A DNA stretch of 39,389 bases from an uncultured Synechococcus sp. (GTDB taxonomy: Bacteria > Cyanobacteriota > Cyanobacteriia > Phormidesmidales > Phormidesmidaceae), in NCBI GenBank assembly GCA_937911865.1, contig CALDSK010000140.1, positions 1 to 39,389 on the forward strand, in the 5' to 3' direction. Of the stretch, positions 10,355 to 36,172 are shown piece after piece. The notes under the pieces were generated by a model. It made no database searches. It saw only the letters and a list, made by a program, of their open reading frames with translations, and was not told the DNA's origin. Within the stretch, counting starts at the first letter, position 1. The number at the start of each line of letters is the position of its first letter. A program made the translations under genes and the position numbers.

Positions 10355-10379
10355 AAGCAAGGCGTGAAGAGAAGTTTTT

Positions 10380-11231: not shown

Positions 11232-12089
<858 letters not shown>

Positions 12090-13448: not shown

Positions 13449-13472
13449 GCCGAACTGCCGCAGACCACCAAT

Positions 13473-14231: not shown

Positions 14232-15368
14232 ATGGTTGCTTTATTCCAAGAATCGTCTCTTTCCCAAGATAGTGTTCCTCAAGAGAGCGTTCCTCAAGCC
14301 GGTGTTACTCGTCCGCGCCTTCGCACAAAGGTCCTCTCTGTCGAAGATATTCGACAGATTGTGGTGCATGTGGGGTTAGACGTCTTGATGGATGAGATGA
14401 TCGCCCGGCTTACAGAGGCGTTTGCTCAGTTTGACCCGTCGGAGACTGTTGTCCCCGTGCGCACTGGCTTTAGCTACGAACAGCCACAGGTGGGGCTAGT
14501 GGAGTGGATGCCCCTGTTTCAAAAGTATCAGCAGATTGTGGTGAAGGCTGTAGGCTACCATCCGCACAACCCTGATGTGCATCATTTGCCGACAGTGCTC
14601 TCTACGCTCTCAGCCTATGACCCAAGCTCTGGCCATTTGAGCGCGGTAATGGATGGCACTTTTTTGACGGCGCTAAGAACTGGGGCCGCGAGTGCGATCG
14701 CTAGTCAACATCTGGCGCTGCCCCATAGCAAAACACTGGGATTAATCGGTGCGGGCGCGCAGGCCGTAACGCAACTCCATGCCCTTTCTCGCTGTTTTGA
14801 GCTAGAGCGGGTGCTGATTTTTGACAGTGATTCAAAGGTAAGCGGTTCGTTTTCTGAGCGGATAGCAGGTTTGGGATTAGAGACTTTAGTCTTTCAGCAG
14901 GCCACTGTTTCTGAGATAGTCGCGGCGGCAGATATTGTGTGTACGGCTACTTCGGTAGAGGTTGGTGCTGGGCCTGTTTTCGATGACCATAGTTTACAGC
15001 CCTGGCTACATGTGAACGCGGTGGGGGCTGATTTTCCGGGTAAGTTTGAGCTGCCACTTAGCCTGTTGCAGCGTGGTTTTGTTTGTCCTGATTTTAGGGC
15101 GCAGGCGATCTTAGAAGGCGAATGTCAGCAGCTGACAGAAAGAGGAGAGATTGGCCCGGAGCTATCGGCAGTGGTGAAGCGGCCCGAACAATACCAGGAG
15201 AAACAACAGCAGCTGACGGTGTTTGATTCGACCGGGTTTGCGTTGGAGGATCAAGTCGCGATGAACATGATGCTGGACTATGCTAAAGCCTTAGATGTGG
15301 GCTCGTGGATGAGTTTAGAGAGCGCGGCTGCGGATGTGAAAAATCCCTATAGCTTTTTGTCCCTGTAG
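14232..15368 (+). CDS. Ornithine cyclodeaminase / mu-crystallin family enzyme (probable L-proline or pipecolate supplier)
   Basis: FLTALRTGAASAIASQHLA and the Rossmann segment LGLIGAGAQAVTQLHAL are OCD-family hallmarks. The N-terminal 30 aa include a 15-nt x3 repeat (QDSVP/QESVP/QAGVT). Confidence 0.8.
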   Translation: MVALFQESSLSQDSVPQESVPQAGVTRPRLRTKVLSVEDIRQIVVHVGLDVLMDEMIARLTEAFAQFDPSETVVPVRTGFSYEQPQVGLVEWMPLFQKYQQIVVKAVGYHPHNPDVHHLPTVLSTLSAYDPSSGHLSAVMDGTFLTALRTGAASAIASQHLALPHSKTLGLIGAGAQAVTQLHALSRCFELERVLIFDSDSKVSGSFSERIAGLGLETLVFQQATVSEIVAAADIVCTATSVEVGAGPVFDDHSLQPWLHVNAVGADFPGKFELPLSLLQRGFVCPDFRAQAILEGECQQLTERGEIGPELSAVVKRPEQYQEKQQQLTVFDSTGFALEDQVAMNMMLDYAKALDVGSWMSLESAAADVKNPYSFLSL

Positions 15369-15400
15369 CTTTTTGTGGTTGTAATTTTACTAGCACCCTA

Positions 15401-15462
15401 AAGAGAAGCCAGAGAGAAAACAAAGAAGCCAAAGAGAAAACAGCGAAGGAGCCGGAGAGAGA
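15401..15462. repeat. Purine-rich tandem repeat of about 20-21 nt x3 filling the OCD-ACAD spacer
   Basis: The units are AAGAGAAGCCAGAGAGAAAAC, AAAGAAGCCAAAGAGAAAAC and AGCGAAGGAGCCGGAGAGAGAA. The last unit supplies the GGAG Shine-Dalgarno for the ATG at 15463. Confidence 0.75.
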
Positions 15463-16614
15463 ATGGAATTTGCTTGGTCAGAAGAACAGCTTGCCTTTAA
15501 ACAGCGCGTGGTGGAGTTTGCGAAAAACACGCTAGATAGTGACGATATGGTTGAGCGTGACTATCACGGCAAGTTCTCTTGGGAGAATTGGAAAAAGTGC
15601 GCTGACTTTGGCATTCAAGGCATGTGTATGCCCGCAGAATACAGCGGCTCTCCGGCGCTGGACATTATGACGGCGGTGCTAGGGATGGAGGCAATCGGCT
15701 ATGGCTGTAAAGACAACGGCTTGACTCTAGCGCTGAATGCGCAGATGTGGACGGTACAGATTTTGCTCTCGCAGTTTGGGTCTGATGCTCAAAAGCAAAA
15801 ATATTTGCCACGCTTGTGCAACGGTGAGTGGATTGGCGTACATGCCCTTTCTGAGCCGGATTCGGGATCGGATGTGTATAGCCTAAAAACGTCTGCAGCC
15901 AAGTGCGATGGGGGCTATCTGCTCAACGGACGCAAGAAATTTGTGACCTGTGCGCCGATTTGCAACCTGGCACTGGTGTTTGCCACGATTGATCAGAGCT
16001 TGGGCAAGTGGGGGCTGAGCGTCTTTTTAGTGGAAAAAGACGCTCCTGGCTTTTCTACCGGGCCGGTAAAAGAGAAAATGGGCCTGCGCACCGCGCCCTT
16101 TGGAGAGATTTTCTTTGAAGATTGTTTTGTGCCAGAAGAGAACCGGCTAGGGCCTGAAGGGGCTGGCTTTAGCTTTTCTCATAGCTCGCTAGAGTACGAC
16201 CGCTGTTTTAACCTGGCCAGTGAGCTAGGGGCTATGGAGCGACAGCTAGAGCGCACGATTGAGTATGCGAAGTCCAGAGAGCAGTACGGTCAGCCGATTG
16301 GCAAGTTTCAGTCGGTGTCGAATCGGATTGCGGATATGAAGCTGCGGCTAGAGACCGCGCGGCTGCTGCTGTACAAGGTGGCCTGGCTAAAAGAGCGAGG
16401 TGAGCCAGCGATGATGGAGGCCGCGATGCTGAAGCTACATTTAAGTGAGTGCTACGTGGCCTCTGGATTAGACGCGGTGCGGATTCATGGCGGCAATGGA
16501 TATTTGACTGAGCATGAGGTAGAAAGAGACTTTCGCGATTCGGTAGGCGGCGTGATTTATGCGGGTACCTCAGACATTCAGCGAAATATTATTGCGCGCT
16601 CTTTAGGGTTGTAA
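15463..16614 (+). CDS. Acyl-CoA dehydrogenase-family flavoprotein, probably an aminoacyl/acyl-carrier-protein oxidase
   Basis: Full-length ACAD architecture (...ALSEPDSGSD...; ...FKQRVVEF...; C-terminal RIHGGNGYLTEHEVERDFRD...YAGTSDIQRNIIARSL). It is adjacent to a stand-alone A enzyme and a carrier protein. Confidence 0.85.
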   Translation: MEFAWSEEQLAFKQRVVEFAKNTLDSDDMVERDYHGKFSWENWKKCADFGIQGMCMPAEYSGSPALDIMTAVLGMEAIGYGCKDNGLTLALNAQMWTVQILLSQFGSDAQKQKYLPRLCNGEWIGVHALSEPDSGSDVYSLKTSAAKCDGGYLLNGRKKFVTCAPICNLALVFATIDQSLGKWGLSVFLVEKDAPGFSTGPVKEKMGLRTAPFGEIFFEDCFVPEENRLGPEGAGFSFSHSSLEYDRCFNLASELGAMERQLERTIEYAKSREQYGQPIGKFQSVSNRIADMKLRLETARLLLYKVAWLKERGEPAMMEAAMLKLHLSECYVASGLDAVRIHGGNGYLTEHEVERDFRDSVGGVIYAGTSDIQRNIIARSLGL

Positions 16615-16628
16615 GGGGGCGAGTGGTA

Positions 16629-18290
16629 ATGATCTATCTTCTATCTCAAATCTTGGATCGTTCGGCGTCGCGCTTTCCCGATCACGATGCCTTTCGCTGT
16701 GAGGGCGTGGGCCTGACCTACGCTGAGCTGTTGCAGCGAGCGAATGGGCTGGCGCAATGGCTGGTAGCGCACGGGGTGGAAAGGGGCGATCGCGTTGGCA
16801 TTTATTTGAACAAAAGTTTGGAGAGTGCGATCGCTGTCTACGGCATTTGGAAAGCTGGCGGGGCCTATGTTCCACTAGATCCAAATGCGCCGCTAGCCCG
16901 AACGGCCTATGCGATTAATCACTGTGAGATTCGATGTTTGATTACCTACAAGGGGCGGCGATCGCGCATTCTAGATCTTCTACAAGCTTCACCCACACTC
17001 TCTTGCATTGTTGGCTTACCAGATTCGTTTGAGCTAGATCAATCTGTCACGCGCTCTGTTACACGCTCTGTCACGCGCTGCGATTGGACCAATCTGCCCC
17101 TAAGTGACCAGGCTCCCAATGTGCGACTGATGGAACAAGACCTGGCGTACATTATGTATACCTCGGGTTCTACTGGCACGCCAAAGGGGATCATGCACAC
17201 CCACCGCAGTGGCCTAAACTATGCACAGATGGCCGCAGACACCTACAAGCTCACTCACAAAGATCGCCTGGGAAATCACTCGCCTCTGCACTTTGATATG
17301 TCTACGCTGGACTACTTTTCGGGCCCGTTGGTCGGTGCGACTACAGTAATCATCCCATCTGCCTATACAAAGCTACCCGCCAGCCTTTCACAGCTCGTGC
17401 AAGATGAGAGAATGACCATTTGGTATTCGGTTCCATTCGCGCTTATTCAGCTACTGCTGCGAGGTGCTATAGAGGAAAATGGTGAAGGAGAAAAAGAAAA
17501 GAGAGATTTATCTTCTTTACGCTGGGTACTGTTTGGCGGCGAGCCTTATCCCGCAAAGTATATGTACGGGCTAATGGAGAAGCTGCCCCAGGCGAGATTT
17601 AGCAATGTGTATGGCCCAGCGGAGATCAATCAGTGCAGCTATTACCACGTGCCGCCACTCGCTGACGGTGAACCGATGCCTGATCAGGTTGCGCCGATTG
17701 GCAAGATCTGGGCGAATGCTGAGGAGATTGTTGTCGATGATGACGATCGGCCAGTGTCTGTAGGGGAGATAGGCGAGCTGTTGGTGCGGACGCCGACGAT
17801 GATGCAGGGCTATTGGCGGCAGCCAGCGCTAAATGAGCGATGCTTTTACCGGACGGAGATTGCGAATCAGACAGCGGTGTTTTATCGGACGGGCGATCTG
17901 GTGCAGGAAATTGATGGTAACTATCATTTTGTCGGTCGAAAAGATCGGCAAGTAAAGATACGAGGCTACCGAATAGAGCTAGATGAAATAGAAGCAGCCT
18001 TGGTCGCGCACGAACAGGTGGAGGAAGCCGCAGCGTATTCTGTGCCGTCTGAGGTGGGAAGCGTGCGAGTAGAGGCAGCGGTGATTTTGAAGTCAGAGGT
18101 GACGCTAGCAAAGGAAGATTTGATGGCGTTTATAGCCGATAGATTGCCGAGCTATGCAATGCCTCAGCAGCTAGAGATTGTCTCTGTGTTCCCCAGAACA
18201 GGGACAGGAAAGATTGACCGGCGACTGTTGCAAAAGCGGGCAGTGGACAGCTATCGCGTAGCGATCTCGGAGGCTTACTCGGTTCAATGA
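16629..18290 (+). CDS. Stand-alone adenylation enzyme (AMP-dependent ligase, NRPS A-domain type)
   Basis: Motifs A3 YIMYTSGSTGTPKG, A5 NVYGPAE, A7 YRTGDL, A8 GRKDRQVKIRGYRIELDEIE and A10 PRTGTGKIDR are present. The ORF-track start is GTG 16623; ATG 16629 follows a G-rich stretch. It contains a 12-nt x3 in-frame repeat (SVTR)3 at 17043-17078. Confidence 0.85.
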   Translation: MIYLLSQILDRSASRFPDHDAFRCEGVGLTYAELLQRANGLAQWLVAHGVERGDRVGIYLNKSLESAIAVYGIWKAGGAYVPLDPNAPLARTAYAINHCEIRCLITYKGRRSRILDLLQASPTLSCIVGLPDSFELDQSVTRSVTRSVTRCDWTNLPLSDQAPNVRLMEQDLAYIMYTSGSTGTPKGIMHTHRSGLNYAQMAADTYKLTHKDRLGNHSPLHFDMSTLDYFSGPLVGATTVIIPSAYTKLPASLSQLVQDERMTIWYSVPFALIQLLLRGAIEENGEGEKEKRDLSSLRWVLFGGEPYPAKYMYGLMEKLPQARFSNVYGPAEINQCSYYHVPPLADGEPMPDQVAPIGKIWANAEEIVVDDDDRPVSVGEIGELLVRTPTMMQGYWRQPALNERCFYRTEIANQTAVFYRTGDLVQEIDGNYHFVGRKDRQVKIRGYRIELDEIEAALVAHEQVEEAAAYSVPSEVGSVRVEAAVILKSEVTLAKEDLMAFIADRLPSYAMPQQLEIVSVFPRTGTGKIDRRLLQKRAVDSYRVAISEAYSVQ

Positions 18291-18386
18291 CAAGATGTAG
18301 CTAAGACTCATATATTGATTGCCACAAATAGCCAAAAACTCTCTTTTCCCTTTTTCTAATCGATTTTTTAATCTCCTAACTTTCTC

Positions 18387-18626
18387 ATGGATAATCAAGA
18401 AATTCTGAAAAAATTTATCAGTGAAGATCTACTCAACAGTCGTCAGCGGGTTGAGGCGGATGACGATTTGCTTGGTGAAGAGATTATTGATTCTATGGGG
18501 GTTATGCGACTTGTGGCGTTTGTAGAAGAGACGTTCTCCTGCAAAGTTCCTCAGTCTGACATCACAATTACTAACTTTCGCACTATTAAGGCGATTGACA
18601 CCTATCTGGCCGCTAGGAGCCTGTAA
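18387..18626 (+). CDS. Stand-alone acyl/peptidyl carrier protein
   Basis: 79 aa with the phosphopantetheine-site context EEIIDSMGVMRLVAFVEE (DSxG-type Ser). Confidence 0.8.
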   Translation: MDNQEILKKFISEDLLNSRQRVEADDDLLGEEIIDSMGVMRLVAFVEETFSCKVPQSDITITNFRTIKAIDTYLAARSL

Positions 18627-18631
18627 CGATT

Positions 18632-20983
18632 ATGATGGCCGCTTCACCCTCTACCAGCTCTTCTACTACGTTGAATTCGCGATTTGATCTGACAACGGCG
18701 CAACGGCTGCTGTGGTTAGGGCAAAAGCTCGTGCCAGAATCGCCGCTGTACAATATGGCGTTTTTGTTTACGCTGGGCGGTAAGGTGGACGCTGGGCACT
18801 TTCAGGCCGCTTTTCAGGCGGTGGTAGACCGGAGCGATACGCTGCGGACCGTGATTGATGAAGCGAGTGGTACGGCCAAGCAGCAGGTGCTGCCACCCTT
18901 TGATTTTCGGCTGCTGGTTTTGGACTTTAGCGCGCAGGAGAATCCGGTGGCGGCGGCGCGTGACTGGGCTGAGGTGAGGGTGCGATCGCCTTTTGATCTG
19001 TCTCAGTGTTTATTTGATACCGCGCTGATTTATCTGGGTCAAAATCGGACCGTTTGGTATCTCAATCAGCACCATCTGATTACCGATATTTCATCGGTGA
19101 AGCAGCTGGTTGAAACGGTAGGAGAGTTCTATGCGCGATCGCTTTCTGGCACATTACAAACGGCTAATCCGCTAACCCCTTACGCTGCTCTCGATCTGCC
19201 TACCCCCTCTACTCGTTGTATTGACTACTGGCGAGCGTGTGAGCTGCAGCCAGTGGCCCTATATCATCGAAGCGCTGAGACTATTTCTGCTAGAACCCGG
19301 CGCGTGCACTGTGAGATAGATGAAAAGAGAACGGCAGCGCTAAAAGAACTGTCAATGCATTCATCGGCGGCGGCTTTGACACCTGCGCTTTCTCTTTTTA
19401 ATTTGGTGGCGGGGCTGCTGTTTGCCTATCTCTATCGGGTTAGTGTCCAAGGTCAGGGTCGTCAGCAGCTGGCGATCGCAACCCCTGCGCATGGTAGACC
19501 CACCAAGGCACTGAAAGAAACGCTGGGCGTGTTTATAGAGCTGTTCCCGCTATTAAGTGAGATAGAAGAATCGGAAACGTTTTCTTCTCTGCTAGCGAAG
19601 GTGCGCGAGGCGAGCGGTGCCCTTTTACGACATGCTGAGCCCGGTGCGAGTGAGTTTGCGCCGAGCCGAGATGTGAACGTGGTGCTAAATTTTATTCCTG
19701 CTCAGCTTTCAGATTTTGCGGGGATGTCGGTACGCTCTGAATGGATTCACGCTGGCGCAGGCGATCCGCGTCATCACCTGCGCTTGCAAGTGCATGATTT
19801 CGATGGGCGAGGACGATTGCAGCTGCACTTTGACCTGAACGAAGATTTATTTGAAAGAGAATTGCAAGACCGGGTGCCAACTCACTTTTTAGCGCTGGTA
19901 GATGCGGTGCTAGCAGATCCTGAGCAGCTGATTTCGAGCGTGGATTTGTTGGGAGATGAGGAGCGATCGCAGCTTGCAGCGCTAGGCTCTTGTAAACCCG
20001 TCAACGCCGACGTAACGGTGGTTGAGTCGTTTGAGCAGACGGTGCAACAGAATGCCAGTGTGACGGCTGTGATCTGTGGTGCTGAGTCGTTGACCTACGA
20101 ACAGCTGAACGCGCAGGTGAATCGACTGGCGAGCTATTTGCGATCGCAAGGTGTGAGTACAGAAATTCCGGTCGGTATTTGCCTGCGTCGCTCAACAGAG
20201 ATGCTGATTGCCGTACTGGCCGTGCTTAAAGCGGGCGGTGCCTACGTGCCTATTGAGCCGAGCCATCCGGTTGAAAGAATCTCCTATATTTTGGAAGATA
20301 TGCAGATTGGCTGGGTGCTGACACACTCTGCTTTAACCGACCGACTGATTGGGAAGGCGCAGCTGATTGCGTTAGATGCAATAGAGCTGAGCCACTGGTC
20401 TGACACCGACCTAGACAGCTCTCCGCAGCCGCAAAACCTTGCTTACTTACTGTACACATCTGGTTCTACCGGTCAGCCAAAAGGAGTCGCCGTTGAGCAC
20501 CGTAATTTAGCAAATTATGTGCAGTGGGCTATTTCAAAGTATGTCCGCGGACGACAGCTTTCGTTCCCGCTGTTTTCTCCGCTAGCCTTTGACCTAACGG
20601 TTACTTCTATCTTTGTGCCCTTGCTATCTGGCGGGCAGGTTGTTGTTTACCCCGATAGCGACGAGCCGCTCGATCTGTCTTTGCAGCGAATTGTTCAAGA
20701 GAATGCTGTGGATGTTATTAAGCTGACGCCTTCTCATTTGGCTTTGATCCAGGGTATGCGTTTGGGCTCTCGGCTGAAGACGTTGATATTAGGAGGGGAA
20801 GATCTAAAGTCTGCGCTGGCTAGTGCGATCGCCTCAAGCAGTCAACAGCCTTTAGAAATCTATAACGAGTACGGCCCCACGGAAGCAACGGTGGGCTGCA
20901 TGATTCATTCGTTTGACTCTGAAGATAAGGCCGCATCCGTCCCGATTGGTCAGCCTGCGGCGGGCTCAGAGATTTATTTGTAA
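18632..20983 (+). CDS. NRPS module 1, part 1: starter-type C domain plus A domain through motif A5, ended by an in-frame TAA
   Basis: The C domain has [14 protein letters not shown]...SPLYNM and HHLITDISS (19070). The A domain has [16 protein letters not shown] and [10 protein letters not shown]. The ORF stops at 20981-20983 inside the expected Y(L/V)LD...PVP segment. Confidence 0.85.
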   Translation: [783 protein letters not shown]

Positions 20984-21001
20984 GATAAAGCGTTAAACCG
21001 G

Positions 21002-24000: not shown

Positions 24001-24175
24001 CAAGGCTGAAACCGTTGAAAAGCTAGCTGACGACATGATGGCCCAGCTACAGCTGTTAGGGGCAGGCCCAACAGAAGCGCCGATTGCAGAAGACTTTCCG
24101 CTGGCGAATCTCGACAGTCAAAAGATGGACAAGCTATCCACTTTGCTCGGCCAGCTAGATGGGTTGGAGGATTAA
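21002..24175 (+). CDS. NRPS module 1, part 2: A6-A8, embedded PP-loop domain, A9-A10, PCP, epimerisation domain
   Basis: It is in the same frame as 18632..20983, and codons 20984-21001 are open. Motifs: [14 protein letters not shown] (A6), YRTGDL (A7), [20 protein letters not shown] (A8), insert, [25 protein letters not shown] (A9/A10), FFDLGGDS (PCP). E-domain motifs are [20 protein letters not shown] and EGHGRED. Confidence 0.85.
   Translation: [1057 protein letters not shown]
21302..22339 (+). other. Zinc-ribbon plus PP-loop ATP-pyrophosphatase domain (N-acetyl-sugar-amidotransferase-like) inserted between A8 and A9 of the module-1 A domain
   Basis: [24 protein letters not shown], then the PP-loop LLSGGKDS (21533-21550), a second Cys cluster CNVCNGC, and ...[13 protein letters not shown]...PYSWDVRMG. 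The insert is flanked by the A8 strand AVSVVH and the A9-proximal strand LAAYYC. Confidence 0.7.
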
Positions 24176-24178
24176 GCG

Positions 24179-27034: not shown

Positions 27035-27036
27035 CT

Positions 27037-28431: not shown

Positions 28432-29221
28432 CTATATTATTTGTTCTACGGTTCGCTCGGGCAGTACTCTGCTCGCCAGAACGCTGTCTGGGCTGGACGG
28501 CTGCGGTCAGCCAGAAGAGTCTTTTCACCGCCATATTATTCGACAAAAGCAGCTCAACCAAAGCTCAAAGAAGTTTATAGATTATTGTCAGGCAATTGTT
28601 GAAGCCAGCGTGAGAAAGGATGACGCCTTGGGTATAAAGCTTCACTGGTGGCAGCTGCGTGATTTTTTGATGCTTGCTAGACAGGCCGCCGATAGCGACA
28701 CAAGCCTGTCAGACCTGGCAGTGTTAGAGCAGTTTTTCCCTAATTTGAAGTTTGTTTATCTCTCAAGAGAGGATCGGGCAGCTCAGGCGGTGTCGGCTGC
28801 GATCGCCAGTCAAACCGGCCTTTGGGAAAAGAATGTCAGCATACCTGCGCCCACCGCAAAATTTCAGCCCTGGAAAATCTACGAGTGGGAGACCGCCCTA
28901 ACTGAGCAGCATCAGAACTGGCAGACCTTCTTTCAACAAAATAGTATTACGCCGTATCAACTCACCTATGAACAGCTGGTCTCAGCTTTTTCGCAGCAAA
29001 TCTCCCAGATAGTCGAGTATCTAGACCTGCCTGTAACACCATCCCCGGATGATATAGACATGCCCGTTCAGCGACAGGCTAACGCCAACAATCAACGCCT
29101 GATTAAGCAATACCAGCAGCTACCCAAGCCACTCAGCGCGGCATCTCTTTGGCTCTATCGTCAGCTAAAACCTTCGTCACAGCCCACTTTGACGGTTAGT
29201 TCGCCGCAGGAGAAAGCCTAA
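28418..29221 (+). CDS. Stf0-type (carbohydrate) sulfotransferase
   Basis: PAPS 5'-phosphosulfate loop STVRSGSTLLARTL and the Stf0-like YLSREDRAAQAVSAAIASQTGLW. ATG 28418 is preceded by AGGAGG (28404-28409) and overlaps the GT 3' end. Its TAA overlaps the next ATG (TAATG, 29219-29223). Confidence 0.8.
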   Translation: MSQPSYIICSTVRSGSTLLARTLSGLDGCGQPEESFHRHIIRQKQLNQSSKKFIDYCQAIVEASVRKDDALGIKLHWWQLRDFLMLARQAADSDTSLSDLAVLEQFFPNLKFVYLSREDRAAQAVSAAIASQTGLWEKNVSIPAPTAKFQPWKIYEWETALTEQHQNWQTFFQQNSITPYQLTYEQLVSAFSQQISQIVEYLDLPVTPSPDDIDMPVQRQANANNQRLIKQYQQLPKPLSAASLWLYRQLKPSSQPTLTVSSPQEKA

Positions 29222-32200
29222 TGACACAATCGCACTCTGACATAACGCAAGAGACTCAAAAGCAAAAGTCTCTAGAACCAGATGCTCTTAAACAAAGGCT
29301 ATCTGCACTATCCGTTCAGCAACGTTCGACACTGGCCAAAAAATTACAGAACCGTGCAGAGGCGAGCTCATCTTCTGCGAGTGCTTCTCAGCAGCTCGTG
29401 GCCTATGTATTGCCTGCTGAGCCCACTGTAGCGATAGATCCCTCTGAAATTAAGGCTGCCCTAAAGGAACAGCTGCCTGCCTACATGATGGTCTCTGCGC
29501 TGGTGCCGCTAGCAGACTTTCCACGAACGGCGAATGGAAAAATCGATGTAAACGCACTGCCCGCACCCGCTTCTCCTGTCAACACTCAGACCGTCTCACC
29601 GCCAACTACCCCTGAGGAGAAAACGCTAGCTGATATTTGGCGTGCGGTGCTAGGTCAGCCTACTGTGGGCATTCACGACAATTTTTTTGAGCTGGGCGGC
29701 GATTCTATTCTCAGCATTCAAATTGTTTCTAAGGCGAGAGAGGCAGGCTTGCGGTTAGCACCCAATCAACTGTTTGAGCAGCCTACGGTGGCTGAGCTGG
29801 CGGCAGCGGTGAATGCTGTTCCGGCGGTGAGGGCGGCGCAGTCTGTGGTGAGTGGTCCGGTTCCACTGACACCCATTCAGCGTTGGTTTGTAGAACAGAA
29901 GATGGCGGTGCCCTATCACTGGCATCAGGCGAGGCTGTTTCAGCTGTCAGCAGATGCTGATATTGAGCGGGTGAAAAGCGCGATCGCAATGCTATGGCAG
30001 CATCACGATGCACTTCGACTGCGCTTTACGCCTGAGGGGCAGCAAACGAATGCTGATATCGAACCTGCGCCAACCTGTTTGGAAATAGATATCTCGGCGC
30101 TAGATGCGGCGGGGCAAAGCGCTGCGATCGCCCGGCACGGTAGTGAGCTACATGCAAATTTGCGATCGCCTGATACCCCTCTCATGCAGGCCGCCTATTT
30201 CAATCGTGGCAAGGCTCAGTCTAACTGGCTGCTACTGAGCCTGCACCACTGGATAGTCGATACTGTCTCCTGGCAGATTATCCAAAATGATTTAGAAAAA
30301 CTGTTAGGTGCAACCGATCCTCAAGCGCAAAGTCTTCCTGAGAAAACAACTTCATTCAAGCAATGGGCTGAAACACTCCTCGCACAGGCTAATTCAAGAC
30401 AGGCTGAAGCTAGCTTTTGGTACGAGCAGGTAGAATCGTCAGCGATTGAAATCCCCGGTGCTACTGCGAAAACTACGCCAACAGAATCAACAACGGGTGA
30501 AGTGGTTACAGCGCTCTCTGAGGAGCACACGCAGCTACTGCTACAGTCTGTTCCTGCTGCCTACAACACTCAAATCAACGATGTTTTACTGACCGCGCTA
30601 ACAAAAACACTACTGCAGTGGGTGAATAAGACTGCTGGCAGTGTGCTGATAGCGTTAGAAGCTCATGGCCGTGAGGCGATCGCAGAGAGTGTAGATCTCT
30701 CTCGTACGGTGGGATGGTGTACAACAACTTATCCGGTTCGCTTGAGCATAGAAGAAGCCCCGAATTGGGGAGTGGCGCTTAAGGCTGTGAAAGAACAGCT
30801 GCGCCAGGTGCCTGATCGTGGCATTGGCTATGGGTTGCTGCGGTATTTAACCACTGGAGACGAGACTCAGGCGATGCGTCAGCGACTGGCGCAGGCGGCT
30901 TCTCCTAGTGTGCTGTTTAACTATTTAGGACAATATTCTTTAGGACAATATTCTAAAGGCGATGGCGTTGCTGAAAACGCGGCGCTGAAGCTGCTGCCTG
31001 ACGTTGACGTAGGTGTACTACGCAGCCCGCTAAATAAGCGTGACTATCTGCTAGAGATTAATGCTGTTGTGAGTCGCGGTCAGCTTCAGTGCAGCTGGCG
31101 CTATGATGAAACGCTTTATTCGGCTGAAACCATAGCGCACTTGGCTTATCAATATCTAGAAGCGCTGACGGCACTGATTGCCCACTGCACAGGGACTGAA
31201 GAGACTGGATTCACACCGTCGGATTTTCCAGATGCAGGGCTGACGCAAGCTGAGCTAGATGCGTTTATCGCTCAGCTGATAGATAGCTCAGCTGTGAGCG
31301 CAAAGCAGCAGGTTGCATCGATTTATCCTTTGGCCTCTTTGCAGCAGGCTTTCTTGTGGCATAGCTTACAGACTTCTGCTGCGGCTGGACTGCTCCACAT
31401 GCGCTGCACGCTGCATGGTGAAGTCGATACGACGCTTTTTCAGCGGGCCTGGAATACGGCTGTCGCTGGCCACCCAGTTTTACGAACCTCTGTGCACTGG
31501 GAGGGTGTGAAGCGGCCTTTGCAGGTGGTGGCCCAGCAGGTAAATCTGCCTGTGGCTGTCCTAGACTGGCGAGATAATGTGTCAGTTGAGCGCCAGATAG
31601 AAGACTTTTTACAGGAGGATAGCGATCGCAGCTTCATCCTCACCCAAGCCCCCATCTCTCGTCTAACGCTCATTCGCACAGCACAGACCACTTACGAATT
31701 TATTTGGACCTGTCATCACCTGTTGTTAGACGGCTGGTCTGGCGCTTTGGTGCTCAATCAAGTGATGGAAAGCTACGAGGCGCTGCGTCAAGGCAAGGTG
31801 CTTTCCCCCGCTGCTACGCCAACTTATCAGACCTATATTCGCTGGCAGCAACAGCAAGATGCAGCCGCCGCCAAAGCCTTTTGGCAAAAGACCTTGAGAG
31901 GATTCGCGACGCCAACGCCGCTACCGTTTGTTGATACTTCTGTTGATCTACCTGAAACGGAGCGGCAGGCGGAAGCTGCGGTAGTGCTGACGGTAGAAGA
32001 GACGGCTGCGGTGAATGCGTTTTTGCGATCGCACCGCCTTACGCTAAACACTTTTATGCAGGGCCTCTGGGCACTGACCCTAAACGGCTACAGCCAATCT
32101 TCAGATGTGTTGTTTGGTGCAACTGTGTCTGGCCGTCAGGGCGATTTGGCTGGCGTAGCGTCAACGGTGGGGTTGCTAATCAATGTGCTGCCGATCCGAA

Positions 32201-33936
32201 TGAAGATTTCGGCTTCGATGTCTGCTTTAGATTGGCTACAAAGCTGGCAACAGCAGCAGGCTGAAATGACGCCTTATGCCCATGCTTCGCTTACTGATAT
32301 TCAGGCTTGGTGCGAGCTGTCTGGTCGTCTTTCTGGCCGTCCTTCCGGCCGTCTTTTCGATAGCTTGCTCGTGATTGAAAACTATCCTATGAGTTTGCAG
32401 GCTGACGCTGCCAGCGTCCGGCTAGAAAATATGCGTTCGGGTGTGGTGAGTACCTACGGCCTGACGGTGCTTGTGAAACCAGGCGATGCCCTGACGCTCT
32501 CTATAGCGTCGGCCTATGCAGCGCGATCTGATATCCAAGATGTTTTGCAGCAGTTCCATCAGCTTTTAACCGCTATCGTTACGACACCTACGGCCTCGGT
32601 CGAAGAGGCTGTGGCAGCTGGTGATTTTTCAGCGATCTCTTCACGATCTGCTACGTTACTGGCTTCACCATCAGGCGTGGATGTTCACGCAGATTATCTG
32701 CCAGATCTGAGCCGGGAGGCGCTAGCTGATTCCTTCACCGCGCCTCGTAACTCACTAGAGCTGAGGTTACTTAAAATTTGGTCAGCTGTTTTGGGCCCGG
32801 CTTCTGAGCGGGCCACAGAGGCGCGTGCTGCCAGCCAGCTGACGGTAGAAGATAGCTTTTTCGACTGGGGCGGCAATTCTATGCAGGCCGTACAGCTGTT
32901 TAATCGTATGCAAACAGAACTAGACTGTACGTTACCCATTGCAACCTTATTTCAAGCGCCCAGCGTTCGTCAGTTTGCGGCCTTATTAGCTAAGTCTAAG
33001 GCTGAGGTAGACGGCGGCTCTGCTGCGATTCAATGGTCTAGCCTGGTCCCTGTGCAGCCTAGTGGCACGGAGCGTCCTTTTTTCTTTCATGGCGGCTCAG
33101 CCGATGCGCTGACATGGGCCCGGTTCTCTCAGCTGCTAGGAGCCAATCAGCCCTTTTACGCGTTTCAACGTCCTGATTTAGACGGGCGAGACAGTCTGCC
33201 GCTTACAGTAGAAGCGCTGGCGGCAAACTGCATAGCAGAGCTGCGAAACGTGCAGCCAGAAGGGCCTTATATCCTGGGTGGGCACTGCTTTGGGGGGGCC
33301 GTTGCTTTTGAAATGGCGCAGCAGCTTCAGGCCCAAGGGCAAGCCGTGGCCAGTGTGATTTTGATTGATGCCTATCGCCCTGAGGTACTGCCCAAGACTC
33401 GCCGAATTCAGCTACAAACGCAGCTGAATTTGGGCATTTTCTGGCTGCGCAAAAACTATTATTACTACGGTAATAAAGAGAATATTAGCCGTTTGCCTAG
33501 TCGGCTGTGGCAGCGAATTCGACCTGCTAAAGGCCGCTCAACATTGGCTGCCGAGAAGCCTGCTGTTGTTGAGATCTCTATGCCTTCTGAAACGTCTTCT
33601 GAAGCTTTTTCTGGAGCCTTTTCTGAAGCCAATTCTGAACAGCCTGATGAGATGTCCTATGAGATGCGCTACGAGCGGGCGATCGCAGCGAATGAAATTG
33701 CCGTGGCTCAGTACCAGGCTCAGCCCTACAGCGGCGATCTTAAACTGTTCCGCGCTCGGGTGCAGATGCTCGAATGGTATTTCGGGCTGATGCTGGGCTG
33801 GAACTCTGTGGTAAATGGTAAGCTCTCGGCGTCGGTTATTCCAGGCTTTTTTGGTAATTTATTCAATCAGAGGGCACTGCCGACACTGACGGCGCAGGTT
33901 AAAAAGCATCTGAATACGCTAAAAAGTAGCCTTTAG
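29221..33936 (+). CDS. NRPS: orphan A-domain C-terminal piece (A9-A10), PCP, E, C, PCP, TE-like domain, with no A domain in the last module
   Basis: Residues 57-116 read LVAYVLP...LPAYMMVSALVPLADFPRTANGKIDVNALPAP (A9/A10; Lys codon 29539-29541). The first PCP is FFELGGDS. The E domain has PLTPIQRWF, HHWIVDTVSW (30244) and EAHGREA. The C domain has YPLASLQQAFLWH and HHLLLDGW (31714). The second PCP is FFDWGGNS (Ser codon 32878). The TE has PFFFHGGS... and the elbow GGHCFGG (Cys codon 33286-33288). Confidence 0.85.
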   Translation: MTQSHSDITQETQKQKSLEPDALKQRLSALSVQQRSTLAKKLQNRAEASSSSASASQQLVAYVLPAEPTVAIDPSEIKAALKEQLPAYMMVSALVPLADFPRTANGKIDVNALPAPASPVNTQTVSPPTTPEEKTLADIWRAVLGQPTVGIHDNFFELGGDSILSIQIVSKAREAGLRLAPNQLFEQPTVAELAAAVNAVPAVRAAQSVVSGPVPLTPIQRWFVEQKMAVPYHWHQARLFQLSADADIERVKSAIAMLWQHHDALRLRFTPEGQQTNADIEPAPTCLEIDISALDAAGQSAAIARHGSELHANLRSPDTPLMQAAYFNRGKAQSNWLLLSLHHWIVDTVSWQIIQNDLEKLLGATDPQAQSLPEKTTSFKQWAETLLAQANSRQAEASFWYEQVESSAIEIPGATAKTTPTESTTGEVVTALSEEHTQLLLQSVPAAYNTQINDVLLTALTKTLLQWVNKTAGSVLIALEAHGREAIAESVDLSRTVGWCTTTYPVRLSIEEAPNWGVALKAVKEQLRQVPDRGIGYGLLRYLTTGDETQAMRQRLAQAASPSVLFNYLGQYSLGQYSKGDGVAENAALKLLPDVDVGVLRSPLNKRDYLLEINAVVSRGQLQCSWRYDETLYSAETIAHLAYQYLEALTALIAHCTGTEETGFTPSDFPDAGLTQAELDAFIAQLIDSSAVSAKQQVASIYPLASLQQAFLWHSLQTSAAAGLLHMRCTLHGEVDTTLFQRAWNTAVAGHPVLRTSVHWEGVKRPLQVVAQQVNLPVAVLDWRDNVSVERQIEDFLQEDSDRSFILTQAPISRLTLIRTAQTTYEFIWTCHHLLLDGWSGALVLNQVMESYEALRQGKVLSPAATPTYQTYIRWQQQQDAAAAKAFWQKTLRGFATPTPLPFVDTSVDLPETERQAEAAVVLTVEETAAVNAFLRSHRLTLNTFMQGLWALTLNGYSQSSDVLFGATVSGRQGDLAGVASTVGLLINVLPIRMKISASMSALDWLQSWQQQQAEMTPYAHASLTDIQAWCELSGRLSGRPSGRLFDSLLVIENYPMSLQADAASVRLENMRSGVVSTYGLTVLVKPGDALTLSIASAYAARSDIQDVLQQFHQLLTAIVTTPTASVEEAVAAGDFSAISSRSATLLASPSGVDVHADYLPDLSREALADSFTAPRNSLELRLLKIWSAVLGPASERATEARAASQLTVEDSFFDWGGNSMQAVQLFNRMQTELDCTLPIATLFQAPSVRQFAALLAKSKAEVDGGSAAIQWSSLVPVQPSGTERPFFFHGGSADALTWARFSQLLGANQPFYAFQRPDLDGRDSLPLTVEALAANCIAELRNVQPEGPYILGGHCFGGAVAFEMAQQLQAQGQAVASVILIDAYRPEVLPKTRRIQLQTQLNLGIFWLRKNYYYYGNKENISRLPSRLWQRIRPAKGRSTLAAEKPAVVEISMPSETSSEAFSGAFSEANSEQPDEMSYEMRYERAIAANEIAVAQYQAQPYSGDLKLFRARVQMLEWYFGLMLGWNSVVNGKLSASVIPGFFGNLFNQRALPTLTAQVKKHLNTLKSSL

Positions 33937-34028
33937 ATAAACTGTTCTTGAAGTGTGACCGGAATGTATGCCGTACAGCGTGGTGTGACTGTAAGCTAGG
34001 TTTTTTGCTGAAAGACCCCCTCTTTGCT

Positions 34029-35165
34029 ATGGCTACCCCCACTAAAATCCTTCAAATTGTGCCGCGCATTTCACCGGAAATGGACGGTGTGGGTGAGTAT
34101 TCGCTAAGGCTGTCAAAACGACTGCGCGCGAACCATCAAATTGATTCGGCCTTTTTAGTTGTGCGGCCTAGCGATAAAAATCAGCCGACGCTAGACGGGT
34201 TTGCGGTGCACTGTTTGCGATCGCATACGGTAGATGCCTTTCTAGATCTGGTGCCCTCAGATGTCTCTGCGGTGGTTTTGCAGTACAGCAACTATCCCTA
34301 TCTGCAAGGCAAGCTAGACGCGCCTATGTGGCTAGGTCTGGCGATGAGAAAGCTGAAGGCAAAAGGCATTGTGACCATTGTGATGTTTCATGAGCTGCCG
34401 ACTTTAAAGTATGGTGTGCTGCGTATGCCGAATCCAATTCAAGGACGGCTCTCTCGTGAGCTGGCTCAAGATTCGGACATTTCGCTGACTAACAATGAAG
34501 CGTTTCAAGAGGTTTTAGAAAAGTGGGCCCCACAGCCGGTTCACTGTCTGCCAAATTTTGCGACGATTGGTGAGCCTGATACGGTACTGCCGCTGGCTGA
34601 GCGCGATCGCGCCCTAGTGGTATTTGGCAGTACCGACCGCCGCCGGGTGTATCAAAGCAATTTGCAACAGCTGAAAGAAATTTGCGAACGGCTGCAGATT
34701 CATACGCTGTACGATGTGGGGCGCTCATTAGAGTGGGATTCTGAGAGCCTTGCGCCTACGGTGAAAACGGTGCGCACTGGGATGCTGTCAGATGAAGAGG
34801 TCAGCGCCCTGATGTCAAGATCTTTTGCTGGGGTATTTGACTATCACAGATTTCCGCGTAATTTGGGTAAATCGACGGTGTATGCCGCCTACTGCGCTCA
34901 CGGCCTGCTGCCCATCTGTAACGGTAGCTTTTTACGCCCTCAAGACGGTACAGTTGCCGATACGCACTATGTTGATACCTTTACGCTGCATACTCGCTCT
35001 GCGCAATCATCGACTGACGACTGGCTGCAAACGATTGCGACCAATGCCCACGAGCTGTATCTCACCAGGTCGCTCGACAGCTGCGCCCAAAAGTATGCGC
35101 AGCTAGTGCAATCAACTGAGGCTATGGCGAGTGCCCAGGCAGGTACGCAAGTTTCTATAAGTTGA
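34029..35165 (+). CDS. Putative glycosyltransferase (GT-B fold, GT4/GT1-like)
   Basis: The N-terminal KILQIVPRISPEMDGVGEYSLRLSKRL is typical of GT4 N-termini. The C-terminal half has LVVFGS... and GKSTVYAAYCAHGLLPI in place of the usual E-x7-E region. ATG 34029 is preferred over the longer ORF from 33948. Confidence 0.5.
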   Translation: MATPTKILQIVPRISPEMDGVGEYSLRLSKRLRANHQIDSAFLVVRPSDKNQPTLDGFAVHCLRSHTVDAFLDLVPSDVSAVVLQYSNYPYLQGKLDAPMWLGLAMRKLKAKGIVTIVMFHELPTLKYGVLRMPNPIQGRLSRELAQDSDISLTNNEAFQEVLEKWAPQPVHCLPNFATIGEPDTVLPLAERDRALVVFGSTDRRRVYQSNLQQLKEICERLQIHTLYDVGRSLEWDSESLAPTVKTVRTGMLSDEEVSALMSRSFAGVFDYHRFPRNLGKSTVYAAYCAHGLLPICNGSFLRPQDGTVADTHYVDTFTLHTRSAQSSTDDWLQTIATNAHELYLTRSLDSCAQKYAQLVQSTEAMASAQAGTQVSIS

Positions 35166-35215
35166 TGCGATAAGTTGACGCGGTGACCTAACGCTTTCTC
35201 TAACCGGTGCTAACA

Positions 35216-36172
35216 ATGCAATCGACCGACTACCCAAAACTTTTTGTAGTGGGTTGCCCGCGTTCGGGCACGTCCTGGGTCACTAAACTGATTGCTAGTC
35301 ACCACACTGTTGTTGAAATTCCGATAGAAACTCACGCCTATCCTTTTCTCTATGAGCCGTTTCTGCGGCTGCCAGCTCAAAGACTGCCTTCACGCTTGCG
35401 CTCGTGGAAAGGGATTGTTCGGCGCTATGGCCTTTGGCCTCTGCTACTGGGGTTCGAGTCTTCAGACATCTGGCGAGGAATTCTACGAAATTACGAGATT
35501 CTCAATACAGAAAACAGTCATGGTTTAAGGCTGTTGGCTGACTATTCCACCTTTGAATCATTGTTGCAAACAGCGCAGCTTCGGCCGGGTCCTGATTTGG
35601 AAAAGGCGGAGCAGCTGATTGGTGATTTGTTTGACTTATTTTTTCAGGAAAAAGGGCAGGCGGGCAGCACGCTGCTAGAAAAAACGCCGATGCATATTCG
35701 CTATTGCGATCGCATTCTTCAACGCTTTCCCAACGCGCAAATTATAGAAGTGATTCGCGATGGCCGAGACGTGTGTGCGTCTTTTCAGGCATTGGCCCAG
35801 CAGTTTGCCTGGGCTGATATGGGTACCGCAGCTGTTATGCACCAGTGGAAAAGCTGTATAGCGCTAGGAGAAAAGTGGCGATCGCATTCAGAATTCGCCG
35901 ATAGAATTCACACCGTACGTTTTGAAGCATTGAAGGCAGATGCTGAGGATCAGCTTCAACAGATTTTCTCTTTTGCCAACCTGGATACGACACCGCAACA
36001 GGTGAGCGAGATTGTACAGAGCGCAGATATTCGCCGGGTTAAAGATAAGGGCGAAGGGCAGTATGTGCGTAAAGGAATTGTAGGAGATTGGAAAGAGCGC
36101 CTGTCGGCTGAGGATGTGGCTATGTGTGAGGCGATCGCAGGTGAGCAGCTAAAATATTTAGGCTACATGTAA
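35216..36172 (+). CDS. PAPS-dependent sulfotransferase
   Basis: 5'-PSB loop VVGCPRSGTSWVTKLI and 3'-PB motif IEVIRDGRDVCASF. The C-terminal VRKGIVGDWKERLS is typical of cytosolic-type sulfotransferases. Confidence 0.8.
   Translation: MQSTDYPKLFVVGCPRSGTSWVTKLIASHHTVVEIPIETHAYPFLYEPFLRLPAQRLPSRLRSWKGIVRRYGLWPLLLGFESSDIWRGILRNYEILNTENSHGLRLLADYSTFESLLQTAQLRPGPDLEKAEQLIGDLFDLFFQEKGQAGSTLLEKTPMHIRYCDRILQRFPNAQIIEVIRDGRDVCASFQALAQQFAWADMGTAAVMHQWKSCIALGEKWRSHSEFADRIHTVRFEALKADAEDQLQQIFSFANLDTTPQQVSEIVQSADIRRVKDKGEGQYVRKGIVGDWKERLSAEDVAMCEAIAGEQLKYLGYM

Follow-up and report, generated by a model that had tools for sequence, protein, structure and literature searches.

The stretch of DNA analyzed here (hereafter the window) is contig CALDSK010000140.1 (39,389 nucleotides) of assembly GCA_937911865.1, assigned to an uncultured Synechococcus sp. 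Proteins of the window match NCBI entries annotated as MAG: Phormidesmis sp. with full identity, which indicates a host of the Leptolyngbyaceae type. Positions 12936-36172 of the window are occupied by a genuine biosynthetic gene cluster for a non-ribosomal peptide synthetase (NRPS), which forms a single co-directional and tightly packed run of genes on the + strand (Table 1). The condensation (C), adenylation (A), thiolation (T) and thioesterase (TE) domains stand in modular order, with the Pfam models Condensation, AMP-binding, PP-binding and Thioesterase all scoring far above their cut-offs, and the assembly-line domains show the expected catalytic residues in HHxxxD, GGxS and GxCxG. Two of the A domains are the main subject of this study. 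The A domain of module 1 (A1) contains a complete AANH/PP-loop domain, and that of module 2 (A2) is divided between two open reading frames (ORFs), between which the genes for a glycosyltransferase (GT) and a sulfotransferase (ST) are nested.

The domains were assigned by Pfam and NCBIfam scans together with a listing of small ORFs. The intergenic spacing within the cluster ranges from a 14-nt overlap to a 96-nt gap. The gene for a HupE/UreJ_2 fusion protein and that for an ornithine cyclodeaminase-family enzyme (OCD) are 3 nt apart (14228/14232), and the junction between the genes for an acyl-CoA-dehydrogenase-type flavoprotein (ACAD) and a free-standing A enzyme lies at 16614/16623-16629. 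The gaps are 5 nt between the carrier protein and C1 (18626/18632), 3 nt between module 1 and C2 (24175/24179), and 2 nt between the A2 core and the nested GT (27034/27037), while the GT stop (28431) overlaps the ST start codon (28418) by 14 nt and base 29221 is common to the ST stop codon TAA and the ATG of the next gene. All of the ORFs, junctions and coordinates quoted in a preliminary description of the window were found in the ORF list and the junction sequences, and its tally of three C, three A, four T, two epimerization (E) and one TE domains agrees with the Pfam and NCBIfam assignments. On the other hand, that description had set the start of the cluster at 14232, one gene too late, and had seen no transporter, overlooking the conserved membrane or transport-type gene directly upstream. 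As the gene at 12936-14228 is co-directional, separated from OCD by only 3 nt and conserved in the cluster family (see below), we place the start of the cluster at approximately 12936.

Table 1. Features of the NRPS gene cluster in the window
Position	Strand	Feature	Basis or remark
12936..14228	+	Membrane protein, uncharacterised N-terminal domain fused to HupE/UreJ_2	Pfam HupE_UreJ_2 1.6e-45
14232..15368	+	Ornithine cyclodeaminase-family enzyme (OCD)	Pfam OCD_Mu_crystall 2.3e-60
15463..16614	+	Acyl-CoA-dehydrogenase-type flavoprotein (ACAD)	Three ACAD Pfam domains
16623..18290	+	Free-standing adenylation enzyme	AMP-binding and AMP-binding_C; code DMLYLGVQCK
18387..18626	+	Free-standing 79-aa carrier protein	Ser in DSMG; NCBIfam ACP/PCP matches; PP-binding weak
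18632..24175	+	Module 1: C1-A1(a1-a8)-AANH/PP-loop-A1(a9-a10)-T1-E1	Pfam, NCBIfam
18632-20983	+	C-A part of module 1	Pfam, NCBIfam
21002-24175	+	A(a6-a8)-PP-loop-A(a9-a10)-T-E part of module 1	Pfam, NCBIfam
21299..22336	+	Embedded AANH/PP-loop domain, 346 aa	Between a8 and a9 of A1
24179..27034	+	C2 (DCL-type)-A2 core (a1-a8, code DSALIAEVW)-variable linker-C-terminal helix peptide-stop	Pfam, translation
27037..28431	+	GT1-family (EryCIII/MGT/UDPGT-like) glycosyltransferase, nested in split A2	Pfam EryCIII-like_C 6.4e-17, UDPGT
28418..29221	+	Stf0-type sulfotransferase, second nested gene	Pfam Sulphotransf 1.1e-27
29221..33936	+	Head peptide-A2 sub (a9-a10)-T2-E2-C3 (DCL-type)-T3-TE	Pfam, translation, motifs
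34029..35165	+	GT-B-fold GT4-like protein, putative second glycosyltransferase	Longest ORF from 33948
35207..36172	+	Sulfotransferase (Sulfotransfer_3/Sulfotransfer_1), last cluster gene	Pfam 9.9e-29, 6.1e-18

Far from being a singleton, the cluster has many relatives. The nested GT has 213 homologues, mostly from marine Leptolyngbyaceae, and a GT profile search, in which each species was represented by one genome, recovered 80 loci, which were annotated by BLASTP of all the stop-to-stop ORFs against the domains of the window (loci and contigs are numbered below with the prefix L). The whole core is common to cyanobacteria including Leptolyngbya PCC 7375 (JH993797.1, ~7.755-7.778 Mb), Leptolyngbya Heron Island J, Adonisia turfae and LEGE 11479, as well as Phormidesmis, Crocosphaera, Dapis and many J06/P01 metagenome-assembled genomes. 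A reduced version, composed of OCD, ACAD, the free A enzyme, the carrier protein, C-A(PP-loop)-T and GT, was found in the Bacteroidota (Saprospiraceae, Maribacter, Wocania, Roseivirga and Flavilitoribacter nigricans), and the gene for the HupE fusion and a further NRPS gene often accompany it. Altogether, judging from gene content, the cluster is one of a large and as yet uncharacterised family, members of which occur in marine filamentous cyanobacteria and in Bacteroidota. In the literature searched we found neither a product nor a description of this family (comparison with MIBiG or antiSMASH lay outside the scope of that search), and the orphan status assigned to the cluster earlier holds on this literature basis.

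Between the motifs a8 (GRGDRQVKIRGHRVELGEIE) and a9/a10 (LPSNLVP/NGKVD) of A1, the single ORF starting at 21002 carries an insert of 346 aa, so that A1 is an interrupted A domain. In a profile of the insert with its flanks, the flanks align with contiguous residues of LgrA on both sides, which places the insertion site in the a8/a9 loop. The insert contains a Zn-ribbon tetracysteine (21338-21409), followed by the PP-loop SGGKDS (21533-21550) and a Cys triad, in which CNGC (21746-21757) and a distal Cys (22136-22138) provide residues C150, C153 and C280 of the insert. The PP-loop noticed in the preliminary description is thus present, but it is part of an entire embedded AANH domain with a triad of the Fe-S type, and the predicted chemistry becomes an exchange of O for S or for N on an Asn-containing intermediate. 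The domains known to interrupt A domains are M, Ox, KR and MOx only in two reviews (PMC8341866, PMC11355689); our insert belongs to none of them. As in A-M-A, A-KR-A, A-Ox-A and A-MOx-A, a catalytic domain sits in the a8/a9 loop of an A domain that is otherwise complete, beside the T domain on the substrate of which it presumably acts, but here this domain is an ATPase of the AANH/PP-loop type that carries both a Zn ribbon and a Cys triad. No A-embedded AANH domain was found in the literature, in a search that also covered thioamide, QueC and NRPS. We therefore regard the AANH/PP-loop insert as a probable member of a class of interrupted A domains that has not been described.

This architecture appeared to be widespread. 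An exhaustive HMMER search with the embedded domain yielded at least 587 clusters (50% identity) with E-values of 1e-30 or lower, and the best 150 of those clusters are nearly all NRPS proteins of 1350-2700 aa, in which the domain occupies residues ~900-1230. A word-indexed search had returned only proteins of up to 606 aa, as if module 1 were broken in all of the relatives; the full-length NRPSs refute this reading. A family of stand-alone PP-loop-A(sub)-T proteins, which the same short matches would suggest, was also found to be wrong by the exhaustive search.

The specificity codes of the A domains were extracted by comparison to a GrsA reference that reproduces DAWTIAAICK. The A1 code, DLTKIGEVGK, is Asn-like: it shares nine of the ten residues with DLTKLGEVGK, which we take, as a lead only, to specify Asn. 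Within the family, every A1 domain bearing the PP-loop insert has an Asn-like code, DLTK(x)(G/A)EVG; in the relatives that lack the insert, the A1 code is that for Ser in some and the same Asn code in others. As the PP-loop A1 domains are always Asn-coded, the Asn carboxamide or the adjacent, newly formed amide is suggested as the target of the embedded domain. The insert is missing from some of the family members, including L011, L029, L031-L034, L043, L047 and L058; the A1 code is DVWHLSLID/E (Ser) in several of them, and L031-L035 lack E1 as well. Such natural variation could be used to deduce the role of the insert.

A2 differs from A1 in that its two parts are encoded by separate ORFs. 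The ORF at 24179-27034 proceeds through a8 (GYRIELGEIE), the strand VVVAR and a low-complexity linker to the peptide SLAEALLSLPPDEAEALLSAVEGTG and a stop codon, and the ORF starting at 29221 opens with LKQRLSALSVQQRSTLAKKL, which is followed by a linker, QQLVAYVLP, a9 (LPAYMMV, 29473) and a10 (NGKID, 29533). The motifs a1-a8 and a9-a10 of a single A domain are therefore on different ORFs, and the break falls in the a8/a9 hairpin loop. Both of the broken ends bear a conserved helical peptide of roughly 20 aa. The C-terminal peptide of the A2 core (26957-27031) was retained in 29 loci with the consensus ..(D/E)SvesLvxaLxxLxpExAEaLLxaxEE-stop, and the N-terminal head peptide of the second ORF (29287-29346) has the consensus M..LyQRVxaLSPsQRxaLAQQL. 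The two complete genes separating the A2 halves (27037-29221) are read in other frames. The GT belongs to the GT1 family (PF06722, 62 bits against a cut-off of 31.7; PF00201, 42 bits against 19.5), although its score for the MGT subfamily of NCBIfam is below the cut-off (140 bits against 260). The Stf0-type ST matched PF09037 with 97.5 bits (ORF 28376-29221) and the NCBIfam Stf0 model with 88 bits, below the cut-off of the latter; its PAPS-loop motif RSGST was read directly, and the same nested ST was found in L017, L018 and L031-L033.

The order of A2 core, optional methyltransferase (MT), GT, optional ST and A2 sub-domain recurred, with intact ORFs, in 28 other species-level loci, 27 of which are cyanobacterial and one of Microscillaceae. 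The nested cargo is GT alone, MT and GT (the PCC 7375 type), GT and Stf0-type ST (the window), or GT and a Sulfotransfer_3 gene, but the break point is constant. The nine-residue code DSALIAEVW is identical or altered by a single substitution at most in every family locus where it was readable, in both phyla. The full A2 code, DSALIAEVWK, matches seven of the ten residues of DSELTAEVCK, which we presume to be His-like (lead only). In the Wocania orthologue, A2 is contiguous with a plain hairpin, VVLVKQDEDKPKRLVAYIIP, and neither of the peptides, and the GT gene follows E2. In Maribacter sp. 2210JD10-5, the A2 halves are adjacent to each other and carry both the tail and head peptides, with the GT gene downstream. 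The preliminary description had listed the arrangement C-A', GT, ST, 'A correctly without recognizing its nature; from these comparisons, it is best regarded as a split of A2 at a8/a9 that is conserved and has whole genes nested within it, not as damage. We infer that the A2 halves reassemble through their terminal helices.

The a8/a9 loop is the classical site of A-domain interruption (PMC11355689). The sole precedent for a split A domain that we found is corallorazine Crz1/Crz2, in which two adjacent ORFs each supply one part of a single A domain (a1-a8 and a9-a10, respectively); this domain is functional, and both proteins are needed for the activity (PMC11342130). In Crz, an N-methyltransferase domain is fused to the first half. 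In contrast, the split ORFs of the window are not adjacent; one or two independent tailoring genes (MT, GT, ST) stand between the halves, the ends carry helical peptides, and the arrangement extends over ~28 species of two phyla. In the linker of the A2 tail, the stretch SGRAESGRAESGNVESGRVES is a tandem repeat and differs between the window and ERZ1740060 (L002). It is one of the short in-frame tandem repeats (12-15 nt, 2.6-4.6 copies) found in inter-domain linkers at 26896-26959, 17043-17079, 32320-32356, 33585-33639 and 14261-14298.

The genes upstream of module 1 agree with the proline-type starter predicted in the preliminary description. The stand-alone A enzyme, the carrier protein and ACAD are three separate ORFs (15463-18626), as in prolyl-carrier-protein dehydrogenase cassettes. 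The best stand-alone PDB relative of the free A enzyme is PltF, L-proline-[prolyl carrier protein] ligase (6o6e, 9e-74), and the enzyme (code DMLYLGVQCK) is putatively proline-specific. ACAD matched best to PigA (399 bits, cut-off 500) and to RedW, an L-prolyl-PCP dehydrogenase (356 bits, cut-off 650), below both cut-offs, and is presumed to be the dehydrogenase acting on prolyl-S-carrier protein. OCD, of which the best NCBIfam match is ornithine cyclodeaminase (198 bits, below the cut-off of 350), is retained in the Bacteroidota versions of the cluster and is presumed to supply L-proline. The trio of stand-alone A, carrier and ACAD is shared with PltF/PltL/PltE (pyoluteorin), PigI/PigG/PigA and RedM/RedO/RedW (prodiginines), AnaC/AnaD/AnaB (anatoxin-a) and ChmJ/ChmI/ChmH (chalkophomycin), the last of which places a pyrrole within a copper-binding NRPS-PKS (polyketide synthase) product (PMC11085572). 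In contrast to those systems, the cassette of the window is coupled with OCD and feeds an ordinary NRPS C domain, with no PKS, halogenase or N-oxygenase; its NCBIfam scores are under the equivalog cut-offs, and the endpoint of the oxidation may be pyrroline or pyrrole.

C1 has the motif HHLITD. C2 and C3 have HHxxxDGWS and N-terminal YPLSPVQ/YPLASLQ, which we take, following Rausch-type signatures of C domains, to be DCL-like. E1 and E2 carry HHxxxDxVSW, and T1 and T2 carry GGDSI. Each of the two E domains is followed by a C domain with DCL-type motifs, in support of the two D-residues proposed earlier. The third residue of the same proposal (Xaa3) has no A domain of its own, as the three counted A domains include the free-standing one; no A domain or remnant was found between C3 and T3, the Ser of which is present. 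Module 3 is thus C-T-TE, and the candidates for loading T3 are the free A enzyme and A2, which has its sub-domain on the polypeptide that also carries T3. The nucleophile of TE is Cys (GHCFGG, codon 33286-33288), as in every TE of the family including those of Bacteroidota (YCFS). The best PDB match of TE, AB3403 (4zxh), likewise has GxCxG instead of GxSxG (GWCFGG). ObiF1 and SulM are said to be Cys-nucleophile TEs that form beta-lactone/beta-lactam rings from beta-hydroxy or beta-amino residues, but no such residue is predicted here and the terminal module is devoid of an A domain.

Two tailoring genes follow TE. The GT4-like protein scored 22 bits for Glyco_transf_4 (PF13439), below the cut-off of 28.5, and four of seven relatives match this model. 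Its AlphaFold2 model (pLDDT 91.2) has a GT-B fold and retrieved the GT4 enzymes 6EJI, BshA, GlgM, PimA and MshA in Foldseek (~1e-11, TM ~0.6), while its family profile had no match in PDB by sequence. The last gene encodes a second sulfotransferase (PF13469, 101.6 bits; PF00685, 65.6 bits), orthologues of which occupy the equivalent position in PCC 7375 and others. The two GT-fold proteins and two STs account for the two glycosylation and two sulfation opportunities foreseen earlier. In L008/L010, L017, L024, L025 and L031-L034, genes for a DegT/DnrJ/EryC1-type aminotransferase and a second GT4-like paralogue are found downstream of TE, which suggests amino-sugar decoration in those relatives. 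No 4'-phosphopantetheinyl transferase (PPTase) gene was found in the window; an Sfp-type one directly follows C3-T3-TE in Wocania ichthyoenteri (L085, 13739-14473).

The contrast drawn in the preliminary description with pathways that use PKSs (anatoxin-a) or Choi enzymes (aeruginosins) was also confirmed. The Pfam/NCBIfam scans detected no KS, AT or KR domain in any ORF of the window, and the PKS part of the anatoxin-a pathway is therefore lacking. Among the 14 cluster ORFs, all of which carry other assignments, there was no Choi (AerD/E/F) gene or hydroxy-acid loading module, albeit no dedicated AerD-F model was run. Aeruginosins, aeruginosides and suomilide are cyanobacterial NRPS peptides whose clusters also contain GT and sulfotransferase genes; the cluster studied here differs in its starter and modules and has neither Choi/Abn biosynthesis genes nor a glyceric/phenyllactic loading module.

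The genes around the cluster are unconnected with it. Upstream (162-12089) are genes for two-partner secretion, a hydrolase, an amylase, UPF0047 and a desaturase, and downstream are SH3 and WD40 genes, among which a WD40-repeat ORF (38973-39332, -) runs toward the end of the window. The upstream region includes a ShlB/FhaC-type two-partner-secretion transporter (162-2042 +, 5181-6233 - and 2918-4978 - are listed for the region). The ORF with the two-partner-secretion domain has just 350 aa and is followed, ~200 nt on, by a 686-aa ORF with no family; the two may represent a fragmented TpsA exoprotein gene. Promoter and terminator scans of the window gave signals at the background level.

Based on the above, the following pathway can be proposed. 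Ornithine would be converted to proline, which would be loaded onto the free carrier protein and oxidized to a dehydroprolyl or pyrrolyl thioester. C1 would couple this starter to Asn on T1, and the embedded AANH domain would then adenylate an amide carbonyl of the T1-bound intermediate, that of the Asn side chain or of the new backbone amide, such that O is replaced by S to give a thioamide or, less likely, by N to give an amidine. After epimerization by E1, the two pieces of A2 would come together through the helices at their broken ends and charge T2 with a His-like residue, with the loading of T3 by A2 as a possibility. The nested GT and ST, together with the distal GT4-like protein and ST, would decorate the product, and the Cys-type TE would release it.

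The genes adjoining the NRPS genes give clues to the nature of the product. The HupE/UreJ_2 fusion is kept beside the NRPS genes in both phyla (fused in L018, L021, L050 and others). Many of the Bacteroidota loci contain a gene for a TonB-dependent receptor, which as a rule comes just before the ACAD gene, and OCD is found on either side. A HupE_UreJ gene (PF04955) adjoins an unrelated PP-loop NRPS in L005. The predicted ligand set consists of a pyrroline/pyrrole N, a thioamide or amidine, and an imidazole, all of which are classical ligands of soft metals. From the receptor genes, the conserved fusion and this ligand set, a metal-binding compound that is re-imported (i.e., a metallophore) is suggested as the most economical reading of the product. 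It is quite conceivable, if less so, that the product is instead a glycosylated and sulfated bioactive peptide, such as a protease inhibitor, toxin or antibiotic, and that the HupE-like and TonB genes serve in export, immunity or unrelated roles. Decoration by GT and ST is typical of cyanobacterial protease inhibitors such as aeruginosins, and the role of PF13795 is putative. Moreover, the region upstream of the cluster showed no element of the Fur, Zur or riboswitch type, and Rfam returned no riboswitch or other RNA in the whole window at the gathering threshold or in the upstream region 12000-13100 at E-values of up to 1. Such a peptide, however, would not readily explain receptor genes inside so many Bacteroidota clusters, the fusion gene kept beside NRPS genes across two phyla or the PF04955 gene at L005, nor would it call for building blocks that are soft-metal ligands. 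The locus L005 (ERZ25039603 contig_35863) represents a different NRPS (A-T-C..., C-A(PP)-T, C-A-T-TE), adjoining a PPTase gene besides the HupE_UreJ gene. The PP-loop-interrupted NRPS genes on this long-read contig and on L004 (contig_29609) are frameshifted; the break in L004 is a frameshift at an A7 homopolymer run of a long-read assembly.

Two kinds of AANH enzymes come into question as the model for the embedded domain. N-acetyl sugar amidotransferases (NASATs) are characterized by the PP-loop SGGXDS and the tetracysteine CXXCXn[GN]XCXXC (PMC10607449), and the insert holds both motifs (SGGKDS, and CTRC...GVCDVC at 21338-21409). It matched the NCBIfam model WbuX (TIGR03573, N-acetyl sugar amidotransferase) over the whole domain with 115.4 bits, below the cut-off of 203.2, and Pfam QueC weakly. 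In Foldseek, the AlphaFold2 model of the insert (pLDDT 91.9) was closest to the NASAT 8WEX (3e-12, TM 0.59), followed by AsnB (asparagine synthetase), YcfA, TtuA, carbapenam synthetase and LarE. If the domain were a NASAT-like amidotransferase/dehydratase, the amide would be converted to an amidine, possibly a cyclic one via the side-chain N of Asn, or to a nitrile, and no sulfur would be involved. The strict link to the Asn code would fit an intramolecular N nucleophile, which would make a glutaminase partner unnecessary. Nevertheless, we consider this alternative less likely for the following reasons. First, C150, C153 and C280 are invariant in 30 of 30 homologues, whereas the tetracysteine is the sole conserved Cys motif reported for NASATs (PMC10607449). 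Second, the spacing of the triad equals that of the Fe-S ligands (C154/C157/C284) of CtaC, the Fe-S AANH thioamide synthetase of closthioamide, which acts on carrier-protein-bound peptides and has D77 and S78 in the ATP site (PMC6772006): the distance from CxxC to the distal Cys is 127 in the insert as it is from C157 to C284, as far as published residue numbers, not sequences, can be compared. Third, when the Zn ribbon was left out of the profile, the core matched best in PDB to 8CNZ (mmLarE-[4Fe-4S]; 2.6e-8) with the CxxC motifs aligned, but to the NASAT 8WEX with an E-value of only 0.28.

As a sequence pattern, the PP-loop, CxxC and distal Cys of the insert are those of the Fe-S AANH enzymes TtuA, TtcA, CtaC and LarE. 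CtaC, TtuA/TtcA and [4Fe-4S] LarE share with the insert the PP-loop ATP site, the Zn-binding Cys and CxxC...C, and CtaC, as an embedded NRPS domain would, acts on peptides bound to carrier proteins; CtaC is, however, a stand-alone enzyme of an NRPS-independent pathway in an anaerobe, whereas the domain here is built into an A domain, and its hosts are aerobes and oxygenic phototrophs. NASATs (WbpG, WbuX and LpNASAT; 8WEX, PMC10607449) share SGGKDS, the zinc motif and the overall fold, but the insert falls below the TIGR03573 cut-off, has the extra Cys triad and is embedded in an NRPS, where it would act on a peptide bound as a thioester and not on a nucleotide sugar. Given the invariant triad, the CtaC-like spacing and the preference of the core for LarE, we favour an ATP-dependent O-to-S exchange, predicted to yield a thioamide on the T1-bound intermediate, over a NASAT-like O-to-N exchange.

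The window contains two in-frame stops, which bear on whether its own copy of the cluster is functional. TAA at 20981-20983 replaces the second Leu of the conserved stretch IYLLD between a5 and a6, as a result of which module 1 is read as two ORFs; its orthologues are single ORFs of 1800-1890 aa and have Leu-Leu where the window reads Leu-stop. ERZ4903302 NODE_407 (L092), which is 99.9% identical, has TTA (A to T at 20982) and an intact ORF of 1847 aa, and, together with the Leu of the orthologues, this rules out TAA as a conserved recoding site. The other stop, TAG at 13446-13448, interrupts the gene for the HupE fusion and is unique to the window; the near-identical contigs covering 13447 (three other assemblies; L089-L093) have TTG, with T instead of A, and the gene is an intact ORF of 430 aa in L089-L092. 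Compared with two near-identical contigs, nine substitutions fall at 13447-13525 (TAG and eight others within 80 bp), and this patch removes residues conserved among the orthologues (IEENW..GTF.NES to LNEENWMPETLGNASS). GCA_050043225.1 has the patch without TAG.

If both stops were real inactivating mutations, the window would hold a dead or decaying cluster and the strain would make no product. The position of TAA within IYLLD, the loss of conserved residues in the patch and the occurrence of TAA in the window, GCA_050043225.1 and ERZ23489093 agree with such decay, which we nonetheless find doubtful. The rest of the 23 kb is intact with zero frameshifts, and each of the stops is lacking in near-identical contigs as described above. 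Furthermore, nine of the ten differences between the window and L001 are transversions, as are nearly all those among the window, L001, L091, L092 and L093 (99.8-99.95% identical; A<->T, C<->A). Such an excess is atypical of real single-nucleotide polymorphisms; errors in assemblies of low coverage, or read sets common to several of them, are suggested instead. A base-call error is thus as likely as a true null allele, and the recurrence of TAA in several assemblies, for which allele sharing was traced through neighbouring proteins, gives no independent support as these assemblies may share reads. We found no record of the exact 783-aa truncated product. The possibility raised in the preliminary description, that the genes are silent relics, comes down to a single TTA-to-TAA change, and the two single-base T-to-A stops are, as far as these comparisons tell, strain-level null alleles or base-call errors, not an old relic.

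It is very improbable that A2 was simply damaged when a GT/ST cassette inserted into it, with module 2 inactive or skipped and its halves not cooperating. An A domain cut by foreign genes does resemble disruption, and a functional split A domain is on record for a single case to date. However, 28 other species-level genomes retain the arrangement, and the ORFs that flank the nested genes are intact in them; the A2 code and the motifs a8, a9 and a10 are preserved, the end peptides are missing from the unsplit Wocania orthologue, and the cargo varies around a fixed break point.

Altogether, we consider it fairly probable that the locus is a genuine NRPS cluster with a split A2, an embedded AANH domain of the Fe-S type, the pathway proposed above and a metal-binding product. 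Several points weigh against this interpretation. The family has no known product, and the chemistry of the pathway is a proposal from sequence. The best structural match over the whole embedded domain is to NASAT, an amidotransferase rather than a sulfur transferase, and the likeness to CtaC is one of published residue positions. In addition, [4Fe-4S] AANH enzymes are oxygen-labile, whereas the hosts are oxygenic or aerobic. HupE_UreJ_2 (PF13795) is just a relative of Ni/Co permeases, and the link to metals is circumstantial. The Asn, His and Pro assignments are tentative, the enzymes named for the loading of T3 are candidates, and docking by the tail and head peptides is deduced from conservation alone. 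Finally, TAA is present in three of the four near-identical assemblies, and the strain may lack a functional module 1.

As a more daring and tentative proposal, which we hold to be possible but not likely, the members of the family would make thioamide-bearing, glycosylated (and here sulfated) peptide metallophores, using a CtaC-like synthetase embedded in an A domain and a two-polypeptide A domain joined by terminal helices. If this is true, the family would exhibit two principles of NRPS design that have not been described before. The first would be a CtaC-like Fe-S thioamide synthetase inside an A domain, found in hundreds of protein clusters. Among non-ribosomal peptides, those with thioamides are stated to be exceedingly rare, and closthioamide was the single bacterial example as of 2019. 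An Fe-S AANH domain embedded in A domains of no fewer than 587 protein clusters would give access to a large and so far untapped supply of thioamidated (alternatively amidinated) peptides. The second would be a two-polypeptide A domain held together by terminal helices, the genes for which are parted by variable tailoring cargo (MT, GT, ST). A functional split A domain has been reported once to date (2024), and the split in ~28 species, with its nested genes and end peptides, would offer the engineering of NRPSs a natural break point already tested by evolution, together with candidates for docking elements. The split may further reveal how interrupted A domains come about or are resolved. Since culturable strains belong to the family (Leptolyngbya sp. 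PCC 7375, Flavilitoribacter nigricans DSM 23189, Maribacter algarum and Wocania spp.), such questions can be addressed directly by experiment. The context of receptor and permease genes points to an unrecognised class of marine metallophores in cyanobacteria and their Bacteroidota associates.

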